Part shown: one piece after another, positions 11,658-19,106 of the stretch
How the letters are laid out: each line of letters starts with the position of its first letter
Position numbering within the stretch: position 1 is the first letter of the stretch
Assembly: GCA_964362865.1 (NCBI GenBank)
Contig: CAYIGD010000003.1
Span: forward strand, 7,926 to 40,845
Origin: an uncultured Candidatus Saccharibacteria bacterium
GTDB taxonomy: Bacteria > Patescibacteriota > UBA1384 > JAGVHQ01
DNA length: 32,920 nt
Reading direction: 5' to 3'
The notes under the pieces: model-generated
The model's input: only the letters and a program-made list of their open reading frames with translations
Database searches by the model: none
What the model was told of the DNA's origin: nothing
Translations under genes and position numbers: made by a program

Positions 11658-11742
11658 GAGAGTGAAATGTATTTCGGAACCAAGCTTGACGCGCCTGCGG
11701 AGCTTCCTCAATGCACCTTACTCTCTTGTTGTAAGGAAGATA

Positions 11743-11769
11743 GAAGAAAACGATAGGGTCGTTTTCTTC
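11743..11769 (-). terminator. Probable trx terminator hairpin
   Basis: The minus strand reads GAAGAAAACG-accctat-CGTTTTCTTC followed by TATCTTCC. 10-bp stem with a U-rich 3' side, about 60 nt after the trx stop. Confidence 0.45.
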
Positions 11770-11826
11770 TCCGATCGGCTACCGTCCTCCTCGGAGGGTC
11801 CGCCGATGAGGCGGATTGGCTATTTT

Positions 11827-12147
11827 CTATTGGCCAAGATGTTGTTCGAGTTTCTGTTTGAGCGAATCTTTGCTGACCGCCCCAATTACACGGTCAATTT
11901 CCTTACCGTCTTTATAAAAGATTAACGTCGGGATGCTCATTACCTGAAACTGCATCGCGGTCGTTTGGTTTTCATCCACGTCGATTTTTCCGAACGTCGC
12001 CTTAGCTGAAAAATCGTGCGAGAGTTCATCCACGATTGGGGAAATGATCTTGCACGGACCACACCAAGTTGCAAAAAAATCAACGAGCGCCACGCCTTTG
12101 GATTGGCCAATTTCCTTAGGAAAATTTGCGTCTGTTAAGTTTGTCAT
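11827..12147 (-). CDS. trxA: Thioredoxin
   Basis: 106 aa with active site WCGPCK and the typical thioredoxin fold sequence. Confidence 0.92.
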   Translation of the reverse strand: MTNLTDANFPKEIGQSKGVALVDFFATWCGPCKIISPIVDELSHDFSAKATFGKIDVDENQTTAMQFQVMSIPTLIFYKDGKEIDRVIGAVSKDSLKQKLEQHLGQ

Positions 12148-12203: not shown

Positions 12204-12818
12204 CTACCTGCCGACTGGCAATTGGTTACTGGAAACTAGTTTGAATTTTAATTGTACCAGAGCGTGGGCGCCAAATAAAGTCCCACTGTAGAGCAGGTCA
12301 CTGACCAGCGTTGCCCCAAAGAAAGGGATTCCCATTACATAACTGGTGACTAAACCATCGGCGGTTAAGGGGTACATGTGAGTTGGCAGCCACAATCCTT
12401 CGGCCCAGACGCCAAAGTTCGTGATCAAAAAGAATACGGTTGATGCAAGCAGCGATCCGCCGATAATATTCGGTGCTGTTACCGCACTGGCAAAACTGCG
12501 GCCGATAAAGTGAGTCAGCGTAAATGCAGCATATACGTACCACATGCCGGAGTGAAAGCCGATGAAGGTATCAGAAAGAAGCATTGCCCCAAGAGTAATT
12601 GTTAAGCCCCACCATCGCCCTAAACGCGCCCCGCCAAAGAGGGCGATCGCGCCGATCGGAGCAAAGTTAGGCGGATGCGGCAGCAGGCGCGCAAGGGCGG
12701 CAATCAAAACAAGACCGGCGGCAAGTACCAAGTACCCAGTGTTTGTAGTGCTCTTTTTTTCATTCGTCACTCGTAGCTTGCCTGTCCTGCGCAGCTTGAG
12801 CGAAGTGGGATTATTCAT
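12204..12818 (-). CDS. Polytopic membrane protein (ECF-S-component-like / DUF6580-like), candidate cobalamin transporter
   Basis: I chose the start at ATG 12818 because the context is TAG-AGGAG-tt-ATG, 7 nt after the upstream stop. The longer 12974 start would overlap the upstream gene by 149 nt. It has 5-6 hydrophobic helices and the motif LPHPPNFAPIGAIALFGG. The family name is from memory. Confidence 0.6.
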   Translation of the reverse strand: MNNPTSLKLRRTGKLRVTNEKKSTTNTGYLVLAAGLVLIAALARLLPHPPNFAPIGAIALFGGARLGRWWGLTITLGAMLLSDTFIGFHSGMWYVYAAFTLTHFIGRSFASAVTAPNIIGGSLLASTVFFLITNFGVWAEGLWLPTHMYPLTADGLVTSYVMGIPFFGATLVSDLLYSGTLFGAHALVQLKFKLVSSNQLPVGR

Positions 12819-12825
12819 AACTCCT

Positions 12826-13533
12826 CTAAAATGCTTCCCATTTCCACTCCGTCGTGTCGCTGGCAATAACCGGTTGGGAGCCGGCGCCGACATTGGAGTA
12901 TTGTCCGTTAAAGTAGAAGGCCCAGTAGTGATGGTCGTCAAAGCAGAGATCGCCGAGGCAATCGACAAACTCACCGTAGGGTGGGAATTCCGTGGTACGC
13001 ACGCGGAAGCCGTTTTGTTGCCCGGCGCGCTTGAGCGCCGATAGGGCTGTATCGCCCGCTTGTAGAGCAGGAGTAAATGTTCCCAGATGTTGAATTTTTA
13101 TCGCGACAGTGGGAATCAGCGCGGGTATGGGTGAGGGCGTTGCGCCGGTTGCAGGCGGGCTCCAGTTTGATTGGCTCGACTGCGTTGCTTCTCCAGCGCC
13201 GATGGCGATCACTTGCGCCGGTCCATTCTGGGGTGGCTCTTCGGTTGGTTTTGCCGCCGCTTGGGCCACATTTTTCTGGATCTGTTTCGGTTTACTGTTG
13301 ACTGTTGGCTGAGCGCCTGCTGGCGAGGCAGGTTGGCTTTCCGCAGGCCCGGTACTCGCTGCCGTTTCATCAATGACGCCTTTCGCATTCAGCTGCGATT
13401 CAAGCTCGCGTACGCGTGTTGCAAGCTGTTCACGGTCTTTCCCGCGCCCAAACCCAACCCCGCCGATTACCAGACTAATCGCCGCGATGCCAACAAGCAG
13501 TAGGAATGAGCGTTTATAGAGTGATTGATGCAT
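12826..13533 (-). CDS. Membrane-anchored DUF4430 (transcobalamin-like) domain protein
   Basis: The C-terminal GDTALSALKRAG...YGEFVDCLGDL...HYWAFYFNGQYSNVGAGS...EWKW fits DUF4430. It has an N-terminal TM and a Pro/Ala/Gln-rich linker. I prefer the start at ATG 13533 (AGGAGG-aatta-ATG); an upstream ATG at 13590 has no SD. Confidence 0.65.
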   Translation of the reverse strand: MHQSLYKRSFLLLVGIAAISLVIGGVGFGRGKDREQLATRVRELESQLNAKGVIDETAASTGPAESQPASPAGAQPTVNSKPKQIQKNVAQAAAKPTEEPPQNGPAQVIAIGAGEATQSSQSNWSPPATGATPSPIPALIPTVAIKIQHLGTFTPALQAGDTALSALKRAGQQNGFRVRTTEFPPYGEFVDCLGDLCFDDHHYWAFYFNGQYSNVGAGSQPVIASDTTEWKWEAF

Positions 13534-13596
13534 TAATTCCTCCTGAAGATCCCTCCGTAGCTTTCGCATCAGGGGGACTTTCGTTTTCATAATTGC

Positions 13597-13750
13597 CTAT
13601 TTAAAAAAGTCTCACGGAGAGACTTTTGCCTTATCCGTGCCTTTCGACCGAAGGCGCGTAACGATTGGTATGGAACGCTAGTTTTCTGACTTTAACAGTT
13701 GCGGGACAGTGGCCGAATTGCACGGCACTTGCCTACGCGTTCCATAGGAT
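13597..13750 (-). promoter_or_regulatory. Cobalamin (B12) riboswitch, compact form, with intrinsic terminator expression platform
   Basis: Minus-strand RNA: UAUGGAACGC-GUAGGCAAGUGCCGUGCAAUUCGGCCACUGUCCCGCAACUGUUAAAGUCAGAAAACUA-GCGUUCCAUA. P1 is UAUGGAACGC/GCGUUCCAUA (13746-13737 with 13678-13669). The core carries the cobalamin signatures AGGcAA, the hairpin GCCG-UGCAAUU-CGGC, GCCACUG, CCCGCAACUGUuAA and AAGUCAG. Next come the hairpin GCCUU-cggucga-AAGGC and the terminator AAAAGUCUC-uccgu-GAGACUUUUUU (13627-13603). Confidence 0.8.
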
Positions 13751-13832: not shown

Positions 13833-14369
13833 CTAGAAATCAATCCCCTGCTTGGCGAGAACGCCTTTGTCATAGGGGTGTTTAATCTTGCGCATTTCAG
13901 TGACCAAATCAGCTGCCTCTTCAATTTTAGGCGTTAATTTATGGCCGGTAATCACAAGGTCCAGCATGGGTGGTTTGGCGCGGATGAGCGCGAGCACTTG
14001 CTCTTCTGTTACGAGCTCTCCCGCGAGTGCCGAAAGCAATTCGTCCAGCACTACCACGTCCGCTTCCGGGTTCTTTACCAGCGCGAGCGCTTTACTATAT
14101 GTTTCTTTGACCGCGCGCAAATGGTCACGAAGCGGTTTTTTGTCGCCCATGATTTTGACCCAACCATCGCCCCAGCGTGAAATCTCAACCGTCGGCAAGT
14201 ACTTTTGAACCGCGCGGTACTCCCCTGTCTCCCACTGCTTCATGAACTGTAAAATCTTGACTTTTTTTTGATACCCTGCCGCGCGCAACACAAGCCCCAA
14301 GGCCGCGGTGGTCTTACCCTTCCCGTTGCCGGTGTAGATGATTACGAGCCCTTTATCAGACGCTTTCAT
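13833..14369 (-). CDS. cobO: Cob(I)yrinic acid a,c-diamide / cob(I)alamin adenosyltransferase (CobO/BtuR type)
   Basis: GLVIIYTGNGKGKTTAALGLVLRAAG...VVVLDEL...LVITGHK...VTEMRKIKHPYDKGVLAKQGIDF is collinear with E. coli BtuR as I recall it. Confidence 0.88.
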   Translation of the reverse strand: MKASDKGLVIIYTGNGKGKTTAALGLVLRAAGYQKKVKILQFMKQWETGEYRAVQKYLPTVEISRWGDGWVKIMGDKKPLRDHLRAVKETYSKALALVKNPEADVVVLDELLSALAGELVTEEQVLALIRAKPPMLDLVITGHKLTPKIEEAADLVTEMRKIKHPYDKGVLAKQGIDF

Positions 14370-15292: not shown

Positions 15293-18200
15293 TCAGGAAC
15301 ACCCTGATGTGGAACCGCAATTCATACATTTGTAGCAGGTACCGTTGCGCACCATAATCGCGCCGCAGTCGGCGCAGCCGGGCGCGTCCGCATCGTTATT
15401 GAAGCTAAAGTTCAGTGCTTGTTTTTGCGCGCTGTCCTCGGGCTCAGCGGAAAGTAAACCTTGCTGAACGGGCGTCACGGGAGTTTCATTGCCAGTGTCT
15501 CTTTGCAGTAGTTTACCGGTCGGTGGATCAAACGTTGGAATCCGCTCCGCCTCGATTTTATCGGTGAGGGTCTTTGTCACACGCGTTTGCTCTTCAGTGA
15601 AGTTTACTCCTACTTGGCGTTGGTCCTCGATGCTCATAAAGCGCCATGCCATCCAACGAAAAATGTAATCAATCATTGATTTTGCGATCCGGATTTGGGG
15701 GTGATTCGTAAAACCGGCTGGTTCAAAGCGCATATGCGCAAACTTGTTGATAAAGGTGCGCAAGGGAACGCCGTACTGCAGTGCAATCGAAACCGCCGTG
15801 GCAAAGGCGTCCATCATCCCGGAAATCGTGCTCCCCTCTTTGCTCATCGTAATAAACAGCTCTCCCGGGGTGCCGTCTTCAAACAAACCGACGGTCAGGT
15901 AGCCCTTGTGGCCAGCGATGTTGAATTTATGCGTAATCGCGCGGCGCTCATCCGGCATCTTGTGGCGGAGCGGGCGGTAAATAATTTTCGTCTGTTCTTC
16001 GGCTTTTTCAACTTTATCTTTGGTAATGTTGAGCGGCTGGGAGTGTTTGGATCCATCGCGATACAAAGCGATTGCCTTGAGGCCCAGCTTCCAACCTTGC
16101 ATGTAAATTTCAGCCACTTCCTCAACGGTTGCGGCTTGCGGCATATTGACAGTTTTGGAAATCGCTCCTGAAATGAACGGCTGGGCCGCAGCCATCATCT
16201 TCACGTGCCCCATCGGGGCGATAAAGCGCGTGCCGTATTTTCCGCATTTGTTGGCGCAGTCAAAAACCGGTAAATGTTCGGCCTTAAGGTGCGGCGCGCC
16301 CTCCACGGTCCCCCGCCCGCAGATGATATCGGAGGCTTCCGCAATCTGCTCTTTTGTAAATCCAAGAGAGTGTAACAGCGAAAAATCTGTTTGCTTTGCT
16401 TGTTCGCTTAACCCTAAACGCTCCAGCGTTGCCTGCCCCAGGACCCAGGGCGCAAACGCCTGTTCCAATTCAAAGGTGAAGTGCAGCGCGCCTTCGATGG
16501 CGATCAAATCGTCTTGAGTTAACCCTTTTTCCGTCAGGGTTTGGGTGTTAATGTGCGGCGCGCCTTCCAAGCTCATGCTGCCGGTGGCGTAGCGCACGAT
16601 TTCTGCGACATGGCCTTCACTGTAGCCCAGGCGGCGTAAAGCTTCCGGGACGGATTGATTAACGATTTTAAAGAATCCGCCGCCCGCCAATTTTTTTAGT
16701 TTCACAAGCGCAAAATCTGGTTCGATTCCGGTTGTGTCGCAGTCCATTAAGAGACCAATCGTGCCGGTGGGGGCGATCACGGTTGCCTGGGCATTCCGGT
16801 AGCCGTATTGCTCCCCTGCTCGCAGTGCTTCGTCCCAGGCCTGCTGGGCGGCATTGAGCATGTCTGGCGGAGCGTCGTCAGGATTAAGGGCGTAGGCCGC
16901 GGCGCGGTGCTTGCGCATCACGCGCAAAAATGGTTTCTGATTTTTACCATATCCTGAGAAAGGTCCGATCCGCGCTGCAATCTCGGAGGATGTTTGATAC
17001 GCTTTGCCGGTTAAGACGGCAGTCAATGCCCCGGCAATCGCGCGCCCCTTATCGCTGTCATAGGGAATGCCCATCAGCATCAGCAGCGTCCCCAGGTTGG
17101 CGTACCCAAGCCCTAACGGGCGGTAATCATGCGAGTTTTGTCCAATTGTTTGCGTGGGGTAAGAGGAAAAATCCACCAGGATTTCCTGGGCGGTTGTGAT
17201 CACTTTAATCGTGTGGCGATAGCCGTCCATATCGAAGCCGCCGTCATCCAAGAGGTACTTGGCAAGATTGATTGAGGCCAAGTTGCAGGCCGAGTCATCG
17301 AGGAACATGTACTCCGAACAGGGGTTTGAGGCGTTGATGCGCTCCGTATTCGGGCACGTGTGCCAGGCGTTGATGGTCGTGTCGTACTGTATCCCCGGGT
17401 CGGCGCTGGCCCATGCCGCTTGGGCGATCATATTCCAGAGCTCACGCGCCTTGTAAGTTTCATGTACCTGCCCAGTTGTGCGGTATTTTGTTACCCAATC
17501 GTTATCATTCTTTACGGCATATATAAATTCATCCGTGACGCGTACGGAGTTGTTCGAGTTCTGGCCGGAAACGGTTTTATAGACTTCGCCGTTGAAGTCC
17601 GCAGGATAGCCGGCGGCAATCAGCGCCGCGGCTTTCTTTTCTTCGTGCACTTTCCAGTTGATAAAGTCTGTGATCTCTGGATGGTCCATATCTAAGATCA
17701 CCATCTTAGCCGCGCGTCGAGTAGTGCCCCCTGATTTTGTTGCCCCGGCTCCCCGGTCAAATACTTCCAAAAAGCTCATTACGCCCGAAGAAGTGCCGCC
17801 GCTGGAAAGCTTTTCAAATTTGGCGCGTAAAGGAGAAAAGTTAGAGCCGGTTCCAGAGCCATATTTAAATAACCGCGCCTCGGTTTTTACGAGTTCATAA
17901 ATCGAGTCTAAGTTATCGTGGACTTTTTGAATGAAGCACGCCGAGCACTGGGGGTGTTCATAGGCGTTTTTTGTTTCGCTCATTGCGTTTGCCTCAAAAT
18001 TCCAGTACCAACTCCTCCCTTGATCTTGGATTCCGTACTGGTGGTACAATCCGCAGTTAAACCAAACCGGTGAGTTGAAGGCTGCTTTTTGGTGGATGAG
18101 GACGTGAGCCAGTTCGGCCTCAAAGGTATCGGCTTCTTCGCCCTTTGCAAAATAACCCCCCATTTTTTCTCCAGCTTCCCGAATGGAATGCACAATGCGG

Positions 18201-18601
18201 TGTACTACCGCCCGAGCTCCGGTCTCATGTCCTGTTTTAGGTACTCCTGCTTTGCGAATGTATTTGAGGGCAAGAATGTCAGTTGCCAGCTGGCTCCAGC
18301 TTTTAGGCACCTCCAAATCGGGGAGCTCGTGCACCACATTCCCCTGCTCGTCCATAATTGCCGACGAACGCTGTTCCCACTCGATTTCATCGAAAGGGTT
18401 GCTCCCCACCGTGGTGAATCGGCGCGTAATCGGTTCCGACGCTGCGCTCGGAACTCCGGCCTCTGCGCTCGTGGGAGTCGCGGGTGTTTGGGTGGGCCGT
18501 TTTGGGCGGGCTGCTTTTGATCGAGGCTCAGCTCCAGCACGCTTCTTTTTCTCAAAGAGCTCTTGTCTGGTTTCGGCTGGTTGTTCGGAAACTGGACCCA
18601 C
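15293..18601 (-). CDS. nrdJ: Class II (adenosylcobalamin-dependent) ribonucleotide reductase
   Basis: 1102 aa. Active-site region ASNPCSEYMFLDDSACNLASINL, RNR barrel motifs, and a C-terminal Cys-rich tail CADCGAIMVRNGTCYKCMNCGSTSGCS. GTG start at 18601 sits 4 nt after AAGGAGG. Confidence 0.9.
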   Translation of the reverse strand: MGPVSEQPAETRQELFEKKKRAGAEPRSKAARPKRPTQTPATPTSAEAGVPSAASEPITRRFTTVGSNPFDEIEWEQRSSAIMDEQGNVVHELPDLEVPKSWSQLATDILALKYIRKAGVPKTGHETGARAVVHRIVHSIREAGEKMGGYFAKGEEADTFEAELAHVLIHQKAAFNSPVWFNCGLYHQYGIQDQGRSWYWNFEANAMSETKNAYEHPQCSACFIQKVHDNLDSIYELVKTEARLFKYGSGTGSNFSPLRAKFEKLSSGGTSSGVMSFLEVFDRGAGATKSGGTTRRAAKMVILDMDHPEITDFINWKVHEEKKAAALIAAGYPADFNGEVYKTVSGQNSNNSVRVTDEFIYAVKNDNDWVTKYRTTGQVHETYKARELWNMIAQAAWASADPGIQYDTTINAWHTCPNTERINASNPCSEYMFLDDSACNLASINLAKYLLDDGGFDMDGYRHTIKVITTAQEILVDFSSYPTQTIGQNSHDYRPLGLGYANLGTLLMLMGIPYDSDKGRAIAGALTAVLTGKAYQTSSEIAARIGPFSGYGKNQKPFLRVMRKHRAAAYALNPDDAPPDMLNAAQQAWDEALRAGEQYGYRNAQATVIAPTGTIGLLMDCDTTGIEPDFALVKLKKLAGGGFFKIVNQSVPEALRRLGYSEGHVAEIVRYATGSMSLEGAPHINTQTLTEKGLTQDDLIAIEGALHFTFELEQAFAPWVLGQATLERLGLSEQAKQTDFSLLHSLGFTKEQIAEASDIICGRGTVEGAPHLKAEHLPVFDCANKCGKYGTRFIAPMGHVKMMAAAQPFISGAISKTVNMPQAATVEEVAEIYMQGWKLGLKAIALYRDGSKHSQPLNITKDKVEKAEEQTKIIYRPLRHKMPDERRAITHKFNIAGHKGYLTVGLFEDGTPGELFITMSKEGSTISGMMDAFATAVSIALQYGVPLRTFINKFAHMRFEPAGFTNHPQIRIAKSMIDYIFRWMAWRFMSIEDQRQVGVNFTEEQTRVTKTLTDKIEAERIPTFDPPTGKLLQRDTGNETPVTPVQQGLLSAEPEDSAQKQALNFSFNNDADAPGCADCGAIMVRNGTCYKCMNCGSTSGCS

Positions 18602-18662: not shown

Positions 18663-19106
18663 TTATTTTTGTAACGCTTTTAATTCTTTTTCAAAAGCAT
18701 TCGCGCTTCGGAACGCTTTATACACCGACGCGAACCGCAGGTATGCAACCGTATCGACGGTACGCAGCTCTTGCATGACCAGCTCACCAATCACGCGCGA
18801 GCTGATAAAGTCATCGCCACGGTCGTAAAGCTGTTGTTCGATGGTCTTAACTATTCGGTGGATATCGGCAAGCGACAAGGGCCGTTTTTCAGCCGCTTTC
18901 GCGATTCCTTGGGCTATCTTCTCTTTCTGGAATGGGGCTTTGGAACCATTGCGTTTGACCACGATTAAGCGTGGCATTTCCAATCGTTCAAATGTAGTAA
19001 AGCGGTGTGCGCATTGCAGACACTCTCGCCGCCGCCGGATCGAGTGTTCGGTATCTTCACGGGAATCTATTACGCGCGTCTCGTTATGACATTTAGGACA
19101 CAGCAT
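18663..19106 (-). CDS. nrdR: Transcriptional repressor NrdR (Zn-ribbon + ATP-cone)
   Basis: MLCPKCHNETRVIDSRE...RRRRECLQCAHRFTTFERLE is followed by an ATP-cone sequence. It lies immediately upstream of nrdJ. Confidence 0.92.
   Translation of the reverse strand: MLCPKCHNETRVIDSREDTEHSIRRRRECLQCAHRFTTFERLEMPRLIVVKRNGSKAPFQKEKIAQGIAKAAEKRPLSLADIHRIVKTIEQQLYDRGDDFISSRVIGELVMQELRTVDTVAYLRFASVYKAFRSANAFEKELKALQK

Follow-up and report, generated by a model that had tools for sequence, protein, structure and literature searches.

Which membrane protein brings vitamin B12 (cobalamin) into bacteria that do not make the vitamin themselves? For most B12-dependent prokaryotes, the membrane proteins of vitamin uptake are still unidentified (PMC6072759). 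A two-gene locus in DNA from an uncultured Candidatus Saccharibacteria bacterium, a member of the Patescibacteria (GenBank assembly GCA_964362865.1, contig CAYIGD010000003.1, positions 7,926 to 40,845 of the forward strand), raises this question anew. We refer to this whole stretch of 32,920 nucleotides as the window and number positions from its first letter. On its minus strand, a cobalamin riboswitch precedes gene 1, whose product is a membrane-anchored DUF4430 protein, and gene 2, which encodes a membrane protein of the DUF6580 family. Judging from sequence and modelled structure, the locus as a whole is quite likely a cobalamin-repressed B12 scavenging operon that combines a DUF4430 binder with a solitary DUF6580 permease.

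A cobalamin riboswitch ahead of two membrane protein genes

The RF01689 match found by cmscan spans the complete model (positions 1-81 of 81) and scored 45.8 bits against a gathering score of 36.5 (E = 3.9e-08); no other Rfam family exceeded its gathering score anywhere in the 32.9 kb window. The related model RF00174, searched against the whole genome, recognised the same site (29.1 bits), and this was the one cobalamin riboswitch that it found in the 705 kb assembly. RNA folding closed the aptamer with a P1 helix between GGAACGC (13737-13743) and GCGUUCC (13672-13678), and the leader folded into the aptamer, a small hairpin at 13639-13655 and a 9-bp hairpin at 13605-13627 (z = -3.0 relative to shuffled sequences). 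The arms of the 9-bp hairpin, AAAAGUCUC and GAGACUUUU, run into a U-tract ending at 13603, directly after the aptamer, and form an intrinsic-terminator-type platform. A simple terminator pattern scan did not list this hairpin, which was placed by folding instead, apparently because an A-tract pairs with the U-run and draws part of it into the stem. The initial annotation had described a cobalamin riboswitch with a terminator platform upstream of the two genes, and both Rfam models and the folds bear this out.

The leader is predicted to bind cobalamin and switch expression. A candidate antiterminator that pairs the aptamer's AAAGUC with the 3' arm of the terminator was rejected, as forcing this fold cost 7.7 kcal/mol relative to the minimum free energy, and inspection of the sequence by eye found no complement for the class-II L5-L13 kissing loop in the downstream hairpins. 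Class-II aptamers are said generally to prefer cobalamins with small upper ligands; if this is true here, the switch would sense the imported, not-yet-adenosylated pool.

Gene 1 matches DUF4430 (PF14478) with 37.7 bits, above the cut-off of 23.8, at amino acids 179-252 when counted from an ATG at 13590 (about 12835-13056). That ATG, at which the gene had originally been taken to begin, probably lies 57 nt upstream of the true start. The ATG at 13533 is preceded, 6 nt upstream, by the Shine-Dalgarno sequence AGGAGGA (13536-13542), and no comparable ribosome-binding site accompanies the one at 13590; moreover, the public database entry for the protein has 235 aa, and close homologues all start about 8 residues ahead of the membrane helix. 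These observations favour 13533 as the probable start. From this start the protein consists of an N-terminal transmembrane signal-anchor helix with no lipobox Cys, a short heptad-like or coiled segment, a linker of about 100 residues rich in Pro, Ala and Gln, and a 95-residue C-terminal domain.

This C-terminal domain weakly matches the C-terminal domain of human haptocorrin in a sequence search (4kki, E = 0.006). Its AlphaFold2 model (predicted local distance difference test score, pLDDT, of 93) superimposed in Foldseek on 5no0 and 5np4, the isolated human transcobalamin beta domain in its apo and cyanocobalamin-bound forms, with a TM-score of 0.82 and a root-mean-square deviation of 2.0 Å over 100 residues (probability 1.0). 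Entries for transcobalamin, haptocorrin and intrinsic factor made up 17 of the 19 top matches, and the other two were chains of 3u7z, a protein of Ruminococcus gnavus whose deposition describes it as putatively metal-binding. The domain as modelled has the transcobalamin beta-domain (beta-grasp) fold, in keeping with the earlier description of gene 1 as a membrane-anchored protein with a transcobalamin-like C-terminus. Its fold and genomic context suggest that it binds cobalamin.

The hairpin region of the domain (12925-12978, minus strand; residues FVDCLGDLCFDDHHYWAF) carries a CxxxxC pair and a His-His just ahead of an invariant YWAF motif. Both features are common to the DUF4430 domains of this clade, and other DUF4430 proteins adjoining DUF6580 are without them. 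The two cysteines might form a disulfide or ligate cobalt.

The ATG of gene 2 lies 7 nt past the TAG of gene 1 and behind a GAGGAG, an arrangement that marks it as translationally coupled to gene 1. Its product scored 162.1 bits against DUF6580 (PF20221; cut-off 27), covering profile positions 7-159 of 162, and reads LPHPPNFAPIGAIALFGG at residues 46-63. Coordinates, motif and ribosome-binding site agree with what had been read from the DNA, and both Pfam assignments are correct. The AlphaFold2 model, built from 41 homologues (pLDDT 87), has six membrane segments, and its best Foldseek matches were the S-components of energy-coupling factor (ECF) transporters: FolT (4z7f), RibU (5kc0), 5edl, PanT (4rfs), BioY (4dve) and ThiT (3rlb), with probabilities of 0.84-0.99 and TM-scores of 0.5-0.63. 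DUF6580 thus models as an ECF S-component-like six-helix fold, as had been proposed. At the sequence level, the family profile matched exactly one of 177,635 PDB sequences, the 182-aa membrane chain of ECF-CbrT (6fnp, E = 0.014). A single-sequence phmmer search of the gene 2 protein against PDB chains returned noise only, and the protein matched neither of the S-component Pfam families PF12822 and PF07155 at E ≤ 1.

A conserved motif, R-x-x-P-H-P-P-N-F, marks the outer end of the first transmembrane segment and its junction with loop L1. It supplies three of the family-conserved polar residues (R44, H48 and N51); the others are D83, N134, W138 and Y149. The N-terminus of DUF6580 carries seven K/R residues, and by the positive-inside rule both termini are cytoplasmic, so that the conserved polar residues would lie towards the outside, in the half of the protein in which S-components hold their substrates. 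The gene 2 protein contains no Cys, like 17 of the 41 homologues, and the alignment column richest in Cys has it in 19 of the 41. DUF6580 has no demonstrated substrate unrelated to B12.

Several neighbouring genes on the same strand fit the theme (Table 1). A thioredoxin gene probably comes third on the transcript under riboswitch control, and the hairpin that follows it is likely the end of the operon. Since cobO lies immediately upstream of the riboswitch, it is not behind the switch. Beyond it lie nrdJ and nrdR, and domain matches upheld the earlier identification of all three genes. In this cluster of B12 and deoxynucleotide genes, a pterin-4a-carbinolamine dehydratase gene (PF01329; 14745-15137, plus strand) stands between cobO and nrdJ.

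Table 1. Features of the riboswitch locus and its surroundings, in window positions
Feature	Positions	Strand	Basis
Class-II cobalamin riboswitch aptamer (Rfam RF01689 AdoCbl-II, clan CL00101)	13672..13743	(-)	cmscan
Expression platform: intrinsic-terminator-like hairpin AAAAGUCUC-UCCGU-GAGACUUUU and U-run	13603..13627	(-)	Minimum-free-energy and centroid folds, aptamer present
Gene 1, 235-aa type-II membrane-anchored DUF4430 protein	12826..13533	(-)	Pfam, start-site evidence, AlphaFold2/Foldseek
Gene 2, 204-aa DUF6580 membrane protein, six transmembrane segments	12204..12818	(-)	Pfam, AlphaFold2/Foldseek
Thioredoxin gene	11827..12147	(-)	Own Shine-Dalgarno sequence; 56 nt downstream of gene 2, no terminator between
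Terminator-like hairpin, 12 pairs, after the thioredoxin gene	11742..11770	(-)	Pattern scan
cobO/btuR, ATP:corrinoid adenosyltransferase	13833..14369	(-)	PF02572, 196.5 bits
nrdJ, class II adenosylcobalamin (AdoCbl)-dependent ribonucleotide reductase	15293..18601	(-)	PF02867, PF08471, TSCPD
nrdR, transcriptional repressor	18663..19106	(-)	Annotation of window proteins

Need for B12 and distribution of the gene pair

Patescibacteria have minimal genomes and no B12 synthesis, and many of them, including this one, rely on an AdoCbl-dependent reductase for every deoxynucleotide; a B12 importer would therefore be essential for growth and would help to define their dependence on neighbouring cells. 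We searched the 705 kb assembly (91% complete, 0.2% contamination) with Pfam models, each of which gave the expected positives in control genomes. No match was found for EcfT/CbiQ (PF02361), for FecCD/BtuC, for proteins with a B12-binding domain (MetH, mutases), for CobS or for the class III ribonucleotide reductase (RNR) NrdD, and tblastn revealed no second RNR barrel. That leaves NrdJ as the one RNR, and the one recognised B12 enzyme, found in this genome. The lack of BtuCDF and of an ECF T component, first remarked on for the window, extends in the case of BtuC and EcfT to the whole genome, and the proposal that this organism must import corrinoids to make its deoxynucleotides is supported.

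The cargo might be a part of the vitamin: cobalt, cobinamide, alpha-ribazole or 5,6-dimethylbenzimidazole instead of complete cobalamin. In other bacteria, cobalamin riboswitches control transporters of cobalt and of precursors, and CbiM, which is S-component-like, transports cobalt. ECF-CbrT also takes cobinamide (PMC5997447). Yet cobalt or lower-ligand precursors would serve no purpose in an organism whose genome has no CobS and shows no trace of corrin synthesis; the co-located enzymes, CobO or PduO and NrdJ, all act on complete cobalamin; and the fold of the DUF4430 partner is that of a domain crystallised with cyanocobalamin (5np4). We consider precursor import very improbable and take import of complete cobalamin as the preferred reading.

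In an even sample of 401 Patescibacteria genomes, DUF6580 was present in 94 and DUF4430 in 99, with both in 88 (odds ratio 395, Fisher p = 4e-68). In 61 genomes, DUF4430 lay directly upstream of DUF6580 on the same strand and no more than 500 bp away; the median distance between the two hidden Markov model matches was 44 bp. An RF01689-like riboswitch was found in 63 of the 401 genomes, 33 of them DUF6580 carriers (odds ratio 5.0, p = 5e-8), and in 22 genomes it preceded DUF6580 on the same strand at a distance of 0.4-3.8 kb. The order cobO-DUF4430-DUF6580, sometimes with thioredoxin at the end, recurred among 30 further loci of the candidate phyla radiation (CPR), where flanks of 1.5 kb contained cobO 14 times, DUF4430 about 22 times and thioredoxin 5 times.

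Some genomes of the phylum depart from this arrangement. One Patescibacteria locus (L071:363-2180) encodes a 605-aa protein in which an alpha/alpha-toroid (prenyltransferase/SQHop-cyclase-like) is joined to DUF4430, the full transcobalamin-like architecture; its gene follows an RF01482 AdoCbl riboswitch (L071:162-310) and lies upstream of DUF6580, and tblastn found such a toroid protein in 3 of the 30 further CPR loci as well. An RF01689-like riboswitch accompanied by neither DUF6580 nor DUF4430 was seen in 28 of the 401 genomes (for example, G338:C16:183-254, G183:C3:69247-69319 and G371:C1:9832-9929). In five genomes (G236, G155, G390, G279 and G114), a single in-frame stop (TAG or TAA) interrupts the scored part of the DUF6580 match; such stops may point to pseudogenes or recoding, or may come from edge effects of the six-frame scoring.

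Known importers were scarce among the carriers. Nine of the 401 genomes have EcfT, among them one of the 94 with DUF6580. FecCD was tested in 80 of those 94, and a clear permease (313 bits) was present in one; three others barely passed the cut-off, with partial matches.

These counts bear on the alternative that DUF6580 is a genuine S-component requiring an unrecognised or highly divergent T-component/ATPase, or a generic ABC ATPase encoded elsewhere, which would make the two-gene module an incomplete importer. The S-component fold points that way, as does the weak profile link to CbrT, which needs an ECF module (PMC5997447), and transcobalamin-like SLBB proteins are in most cases encoded beside CbiO/CbiQ (Burroughs et al., PMC1796856). 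One CPR genome, G026, likewise has a DUF4430 gene adjoining a strong EcfT/CbiQ match (106 bits; G026:C28:14908-16382). That genome is without DUF6580, however, which suggests that the classical ECF arrangement and the DUF6580 module are alternatives, as they apparently are in this case; EcfT is absent from our genome and from 93 of the 94 carriers; and no ABC genes recur among the neighbours of DUF6580 at the 30 CPR loci or at the 80 cross-phylum loci described next. We regard a hidden ECF partner as improbable and continue with DUF6580 as a solitary protein.

Beyond the Patescibacteria, DUF6580 was found at 582 or more loci (at least that number) in a set of species-representative genomes, with carriers among the Bacteroidota, Ignavibacteriota, Xanthomonadales, Acidobacteriota, Verrucomicrobiota (including Akkermansia muciniphila), Planctomycetota, Patescibacteria and Nanoarchaeia. 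Clustered at 50% identity, the family numbers 6,838 clusters at a threshold of E ≤ 1e-3 and 5,164 at 1e-10. It is absent from all 14 model control genomes, which would explain why it has gone unstudied. For 80 loci we clustered the neighbouring genes within about 3 kb on either side and annotated the cluster representatives. A riboswitch of the cobalamin clan scored above its gathering score at 37 of the 80, nearly always on the strand of the gene, against a chance expectation that we roughly estimate at 1%. The most frequent neighbours were TonB-dependent receptors (33 loci), PduO-type adenosyltransferases (10) and DUF5074 propellers (10), followed by class II-type RNRs (9), DUF4430 (8) and thioredoxin (5). 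At the receptor loci the typical order is riboswitch, receptor and DUF6580, and the receptors are BtuB-like. Within the phylum and across phyla alike, the genes of this module and B12 riboswitches co-occur strongly.

The DUF5074 beta-propeller proteins stand beside DUF6580 in diderm phyla (including L057:1837-2886) and may be surface B12-capture proteins, by analogy with Bacteroides BtuG. Two culturable carriers, Akkermansia muciniphila and Thermomonas hydrothermalis, have DUF6580 within longer frames. On the A. muciniphila contig CAMAWP010000075.1, from a metagenome-assembled genome, one frame (L067:2347-3564) joins PF01902 (Diphthami_syn_2, ATP pyrophosphatase-like) to DUF6580 and lies behind a cobalamin riboswitch (L067:245-408) and a 565-aa open reading frame with no Pfam match. 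In T. hydrothermalis DSM 14834, DUF6580 ends a 421-aa frame (L049:2317-3582) whose 244-aa N-terminal part has no assignment, and PduO follows. Both may be fusions or over-extended open reading frame calls.

The placement of DUF6580 in diderms also speaks to a second alternative, in which it is no transporter at all and serves instead as a docking receptor for DUF4430, a decyanase or reductase, or a signalling module, with translocation left to something else. The S-component fold does occur in sensor domains of histidine kinases (PMC11109136), and BtuM illustrates that decyanation chemistry can reside in S-component-like proteins (PMC6072759). DUF6580, though, is a bare core of six transmembrane segments with no output or catalytic domain; in diderms its gene comes right after those of BtuB-like receptors under B12 riboswitches, the position expected of an inner-membrane transporter; and the known alternative importers, EcfT and BtuC, are lacking in nearly all carriers tested, namely our own genome and the Patescibacteria sample. 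A non-transporting DUF6580 is unlikely, and transport remains the preferred reading.

A proposed route of uptake and its weak points

Taken together, the comparisons make it likely that the DUF4430-DUF6580 module serves corrinoid uptake; that DUF6580 is itself the translocator we hold with somewhat less assurance. When intracellular cobalamin is low, transcription would pass the terminator into the DUF4430 and DUF6580 genes and probably the thioredoxin gene. The DUF4430 domain, tethered by its long flexible linker, would capture a corrinoid outside the cell and present it to DUF6580, which would take it into an outward-opening pocket and carry it across the membrane with no ECF ATPase module. 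CobO would adenosylate the imported vitamin for NrdJ, and thioredoxin would re-reduce NrdJ. Plentiful cobalamin would bind the aptamer, the terminator would form and the operon would be turned off. The riboswitch, both modelled folds, the conserved pairing of the genes, their B12-related surroundings and the lack of BtuC and EcfT are observed; B12 binding by DUF4430, the hand-over to DUF6580, the translocation step and its energy source are conjectural parts of this scheme.

A number of observations weigh against it. Foldseek matched DUF6580 to S-components at weak E-values (0.27 to about 1) and TM-scores of 0.5-0.6, BtuM (6FFV) and CbrT are not within the top 50 matches, and the sequence link to CbrT is marginal, suggestive rather than conclusive. 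CbrT on its own, with no ECF module, fails to transport B12 (PMC5997447); autonomous transport is therefore not guaranteed by an S-component fold. No antiterminator helix was identified with confidence in the leader folds, leaving the exact switching helix conjectural, and about 60% of the DUF6580 genomes in the phylum sample have no RF01689-type riboswitch at the stricter filters used there. At 91% completeness, an importer could be encoded on unassembled DNA of this one organism, although the phylum-wide pattern makes that unlikely. The support for DUF6580 and this DUF4430 protein as a B12 importer is, finally, comparative rather than experimental.

Further-reaching is the idea, possible in our view and offered tentatively, that DUF4430 and DUF6580 constitute an undescribed two-part B12 importer in which the binder is needed and passes cobalamin straight to the permease, no ATPase takes part, and trapping inside the cell, through adenosylation by CobO and binding to NrdJ, supplies the pull. 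By the same account, the inner-membrane B12 transporter still missing in Patescibacteria would be DUF6580, and it would fill the same gap, there behind BtuB, in many Bacteroidota, Ignavibacteriota, Acidobacteriota, Verrucomicrobiota (including Akkermansia) and Xanthomonadales. If this is true, a family of several thousand sequence clusters would gain a function, a third type of inner-membrane B12 transporter would join BtuCDF and ECF-CbrT/BtuM, and a lone transcobalamin beta domain would prove to serve as a bacterial capture device. B12 auxotrophy and cross-feeding could also be better predicted from metagenomes, including those with gut Akkermansia. The value of the finding lies at the level of the family, the window being one of many instances of the same module.

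Comparison with known B12 transport systems

BtuM is a solitary, S-component-like protein that transports B12 without an ECF module and is found next to btuB in bacteria that have neither ECF nor BtuCDF (PMC6072759). BtuM of Thiobacillus denitrificans (PDB 6FFV) and DUF6580 are alike as small (~20 kDa), solitary, S-component-like membrane proteins, in genomes with no ECF module or BtuCDF (for DUF6580, its own genome here and nearly all tested Patescibacteria carriers) and in their links to btuB and B12 regulation; ECF-independent B12 uptake would be a further likeness, for DUF6580 a proposed one only. The two differ in that BtuM has an invariant cobalt-ligating cysteine, Cys80 (PMC6072759), whereas no column of DUF6580 is conserved as Cys. 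BtuM is also without a tethered binder partner, whereas DUF6580 in Patescibacteria is usually paired with DUF4430, and it is mostly proteobacterial with 131 reported homologues, in contrast to the more than 5,000 DUF6580 clusters at 50% identity in CPR, Bacteroidota, Ignavibacteriota and other groups. Neither phmmer with the gene 2 protein nor the DUF6580 profile recovered 6FFV at E ≤ 10. With no conserved Cys and no detectable sequence similarity, we rejected the idea that DUF6580 is BtuM under another name.

In Lactobacillus delbrueckii, an nrdJ-cbrS-cbrT-pduO cluster led to the discovery of ECF-CbrT (PDB 6FNP; PMC5997447), and our locus follows a similar plan, with genes for a class II RNR, an adenosyltransferase and a membrane protein of the S-component type. 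Among solved structures, CbrT alone was matched by the DUF6580 profile, yet a CbrT fragment matches PF12822/PF07155 and the DUF6580 protein does not, and CbrT needs EcfAA'T and ATP, of which EcfT is absent from our genome and nearly all carriers. DUF6580 belongs to a different Pfam family and is not accompanied by an ECF module, and equating it with CbrT was likewise rejected. BtuCDF, a type II ABC importer, would share the physiological role proposed for the DUF6580 module and is under cobalamin riboswitch control in many bacteria, but it is unrelated to DUF6580 in fold and mechanism; it is absent from our genome, and a clear FecCD is absent from 79 of the 80 carriers tested.

For the binder, the precedents are the animal B12 carriers and the bacterial transcobalamin-like SLBB proteins, which were predicted in 2007 to scavenge B12 and were described with CbiO/CbiQ genes (Burroughs, Balaji, Iyer and Aravind; PMC1796856). 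The gene 1 protein shares the beta-domain fold with the SLBB proteins and with transcobalamin, haptocorrin and intrinsic factor, and, like the SLBB proteins, it would be a surface-exposed protein of a B12 auxotroph with a predicted role in B12 scavenging. Unlike animal transcobalamin, it has the beta domain alone, with no alpha/alpha toroid, on an N-terminal transmembrane tether and a long linker, and its partner is DUF6580, whereas the SLBB proteins are partnered by the ECF genes CbiO/CbiQ.

NCBI labels homologues of the gene 2 protein as a 'DUF6580 family putative transport protein', and NCBIfam holds no model for either protein. In a full-text literature search we found no paper on DUF6580, the mentions of PF20221 being reagent catalogue numbers, and a search for Patescibacteria together with cobalamin riboswitches returned nothing specific. 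Solitary B12 importers as a type are already known. What the comparison supports as new here is a candidate solitary importer of the S-component type, from an experimentally uncharacterised family, that is coupled to a tethered transcobalamin-beta binder.

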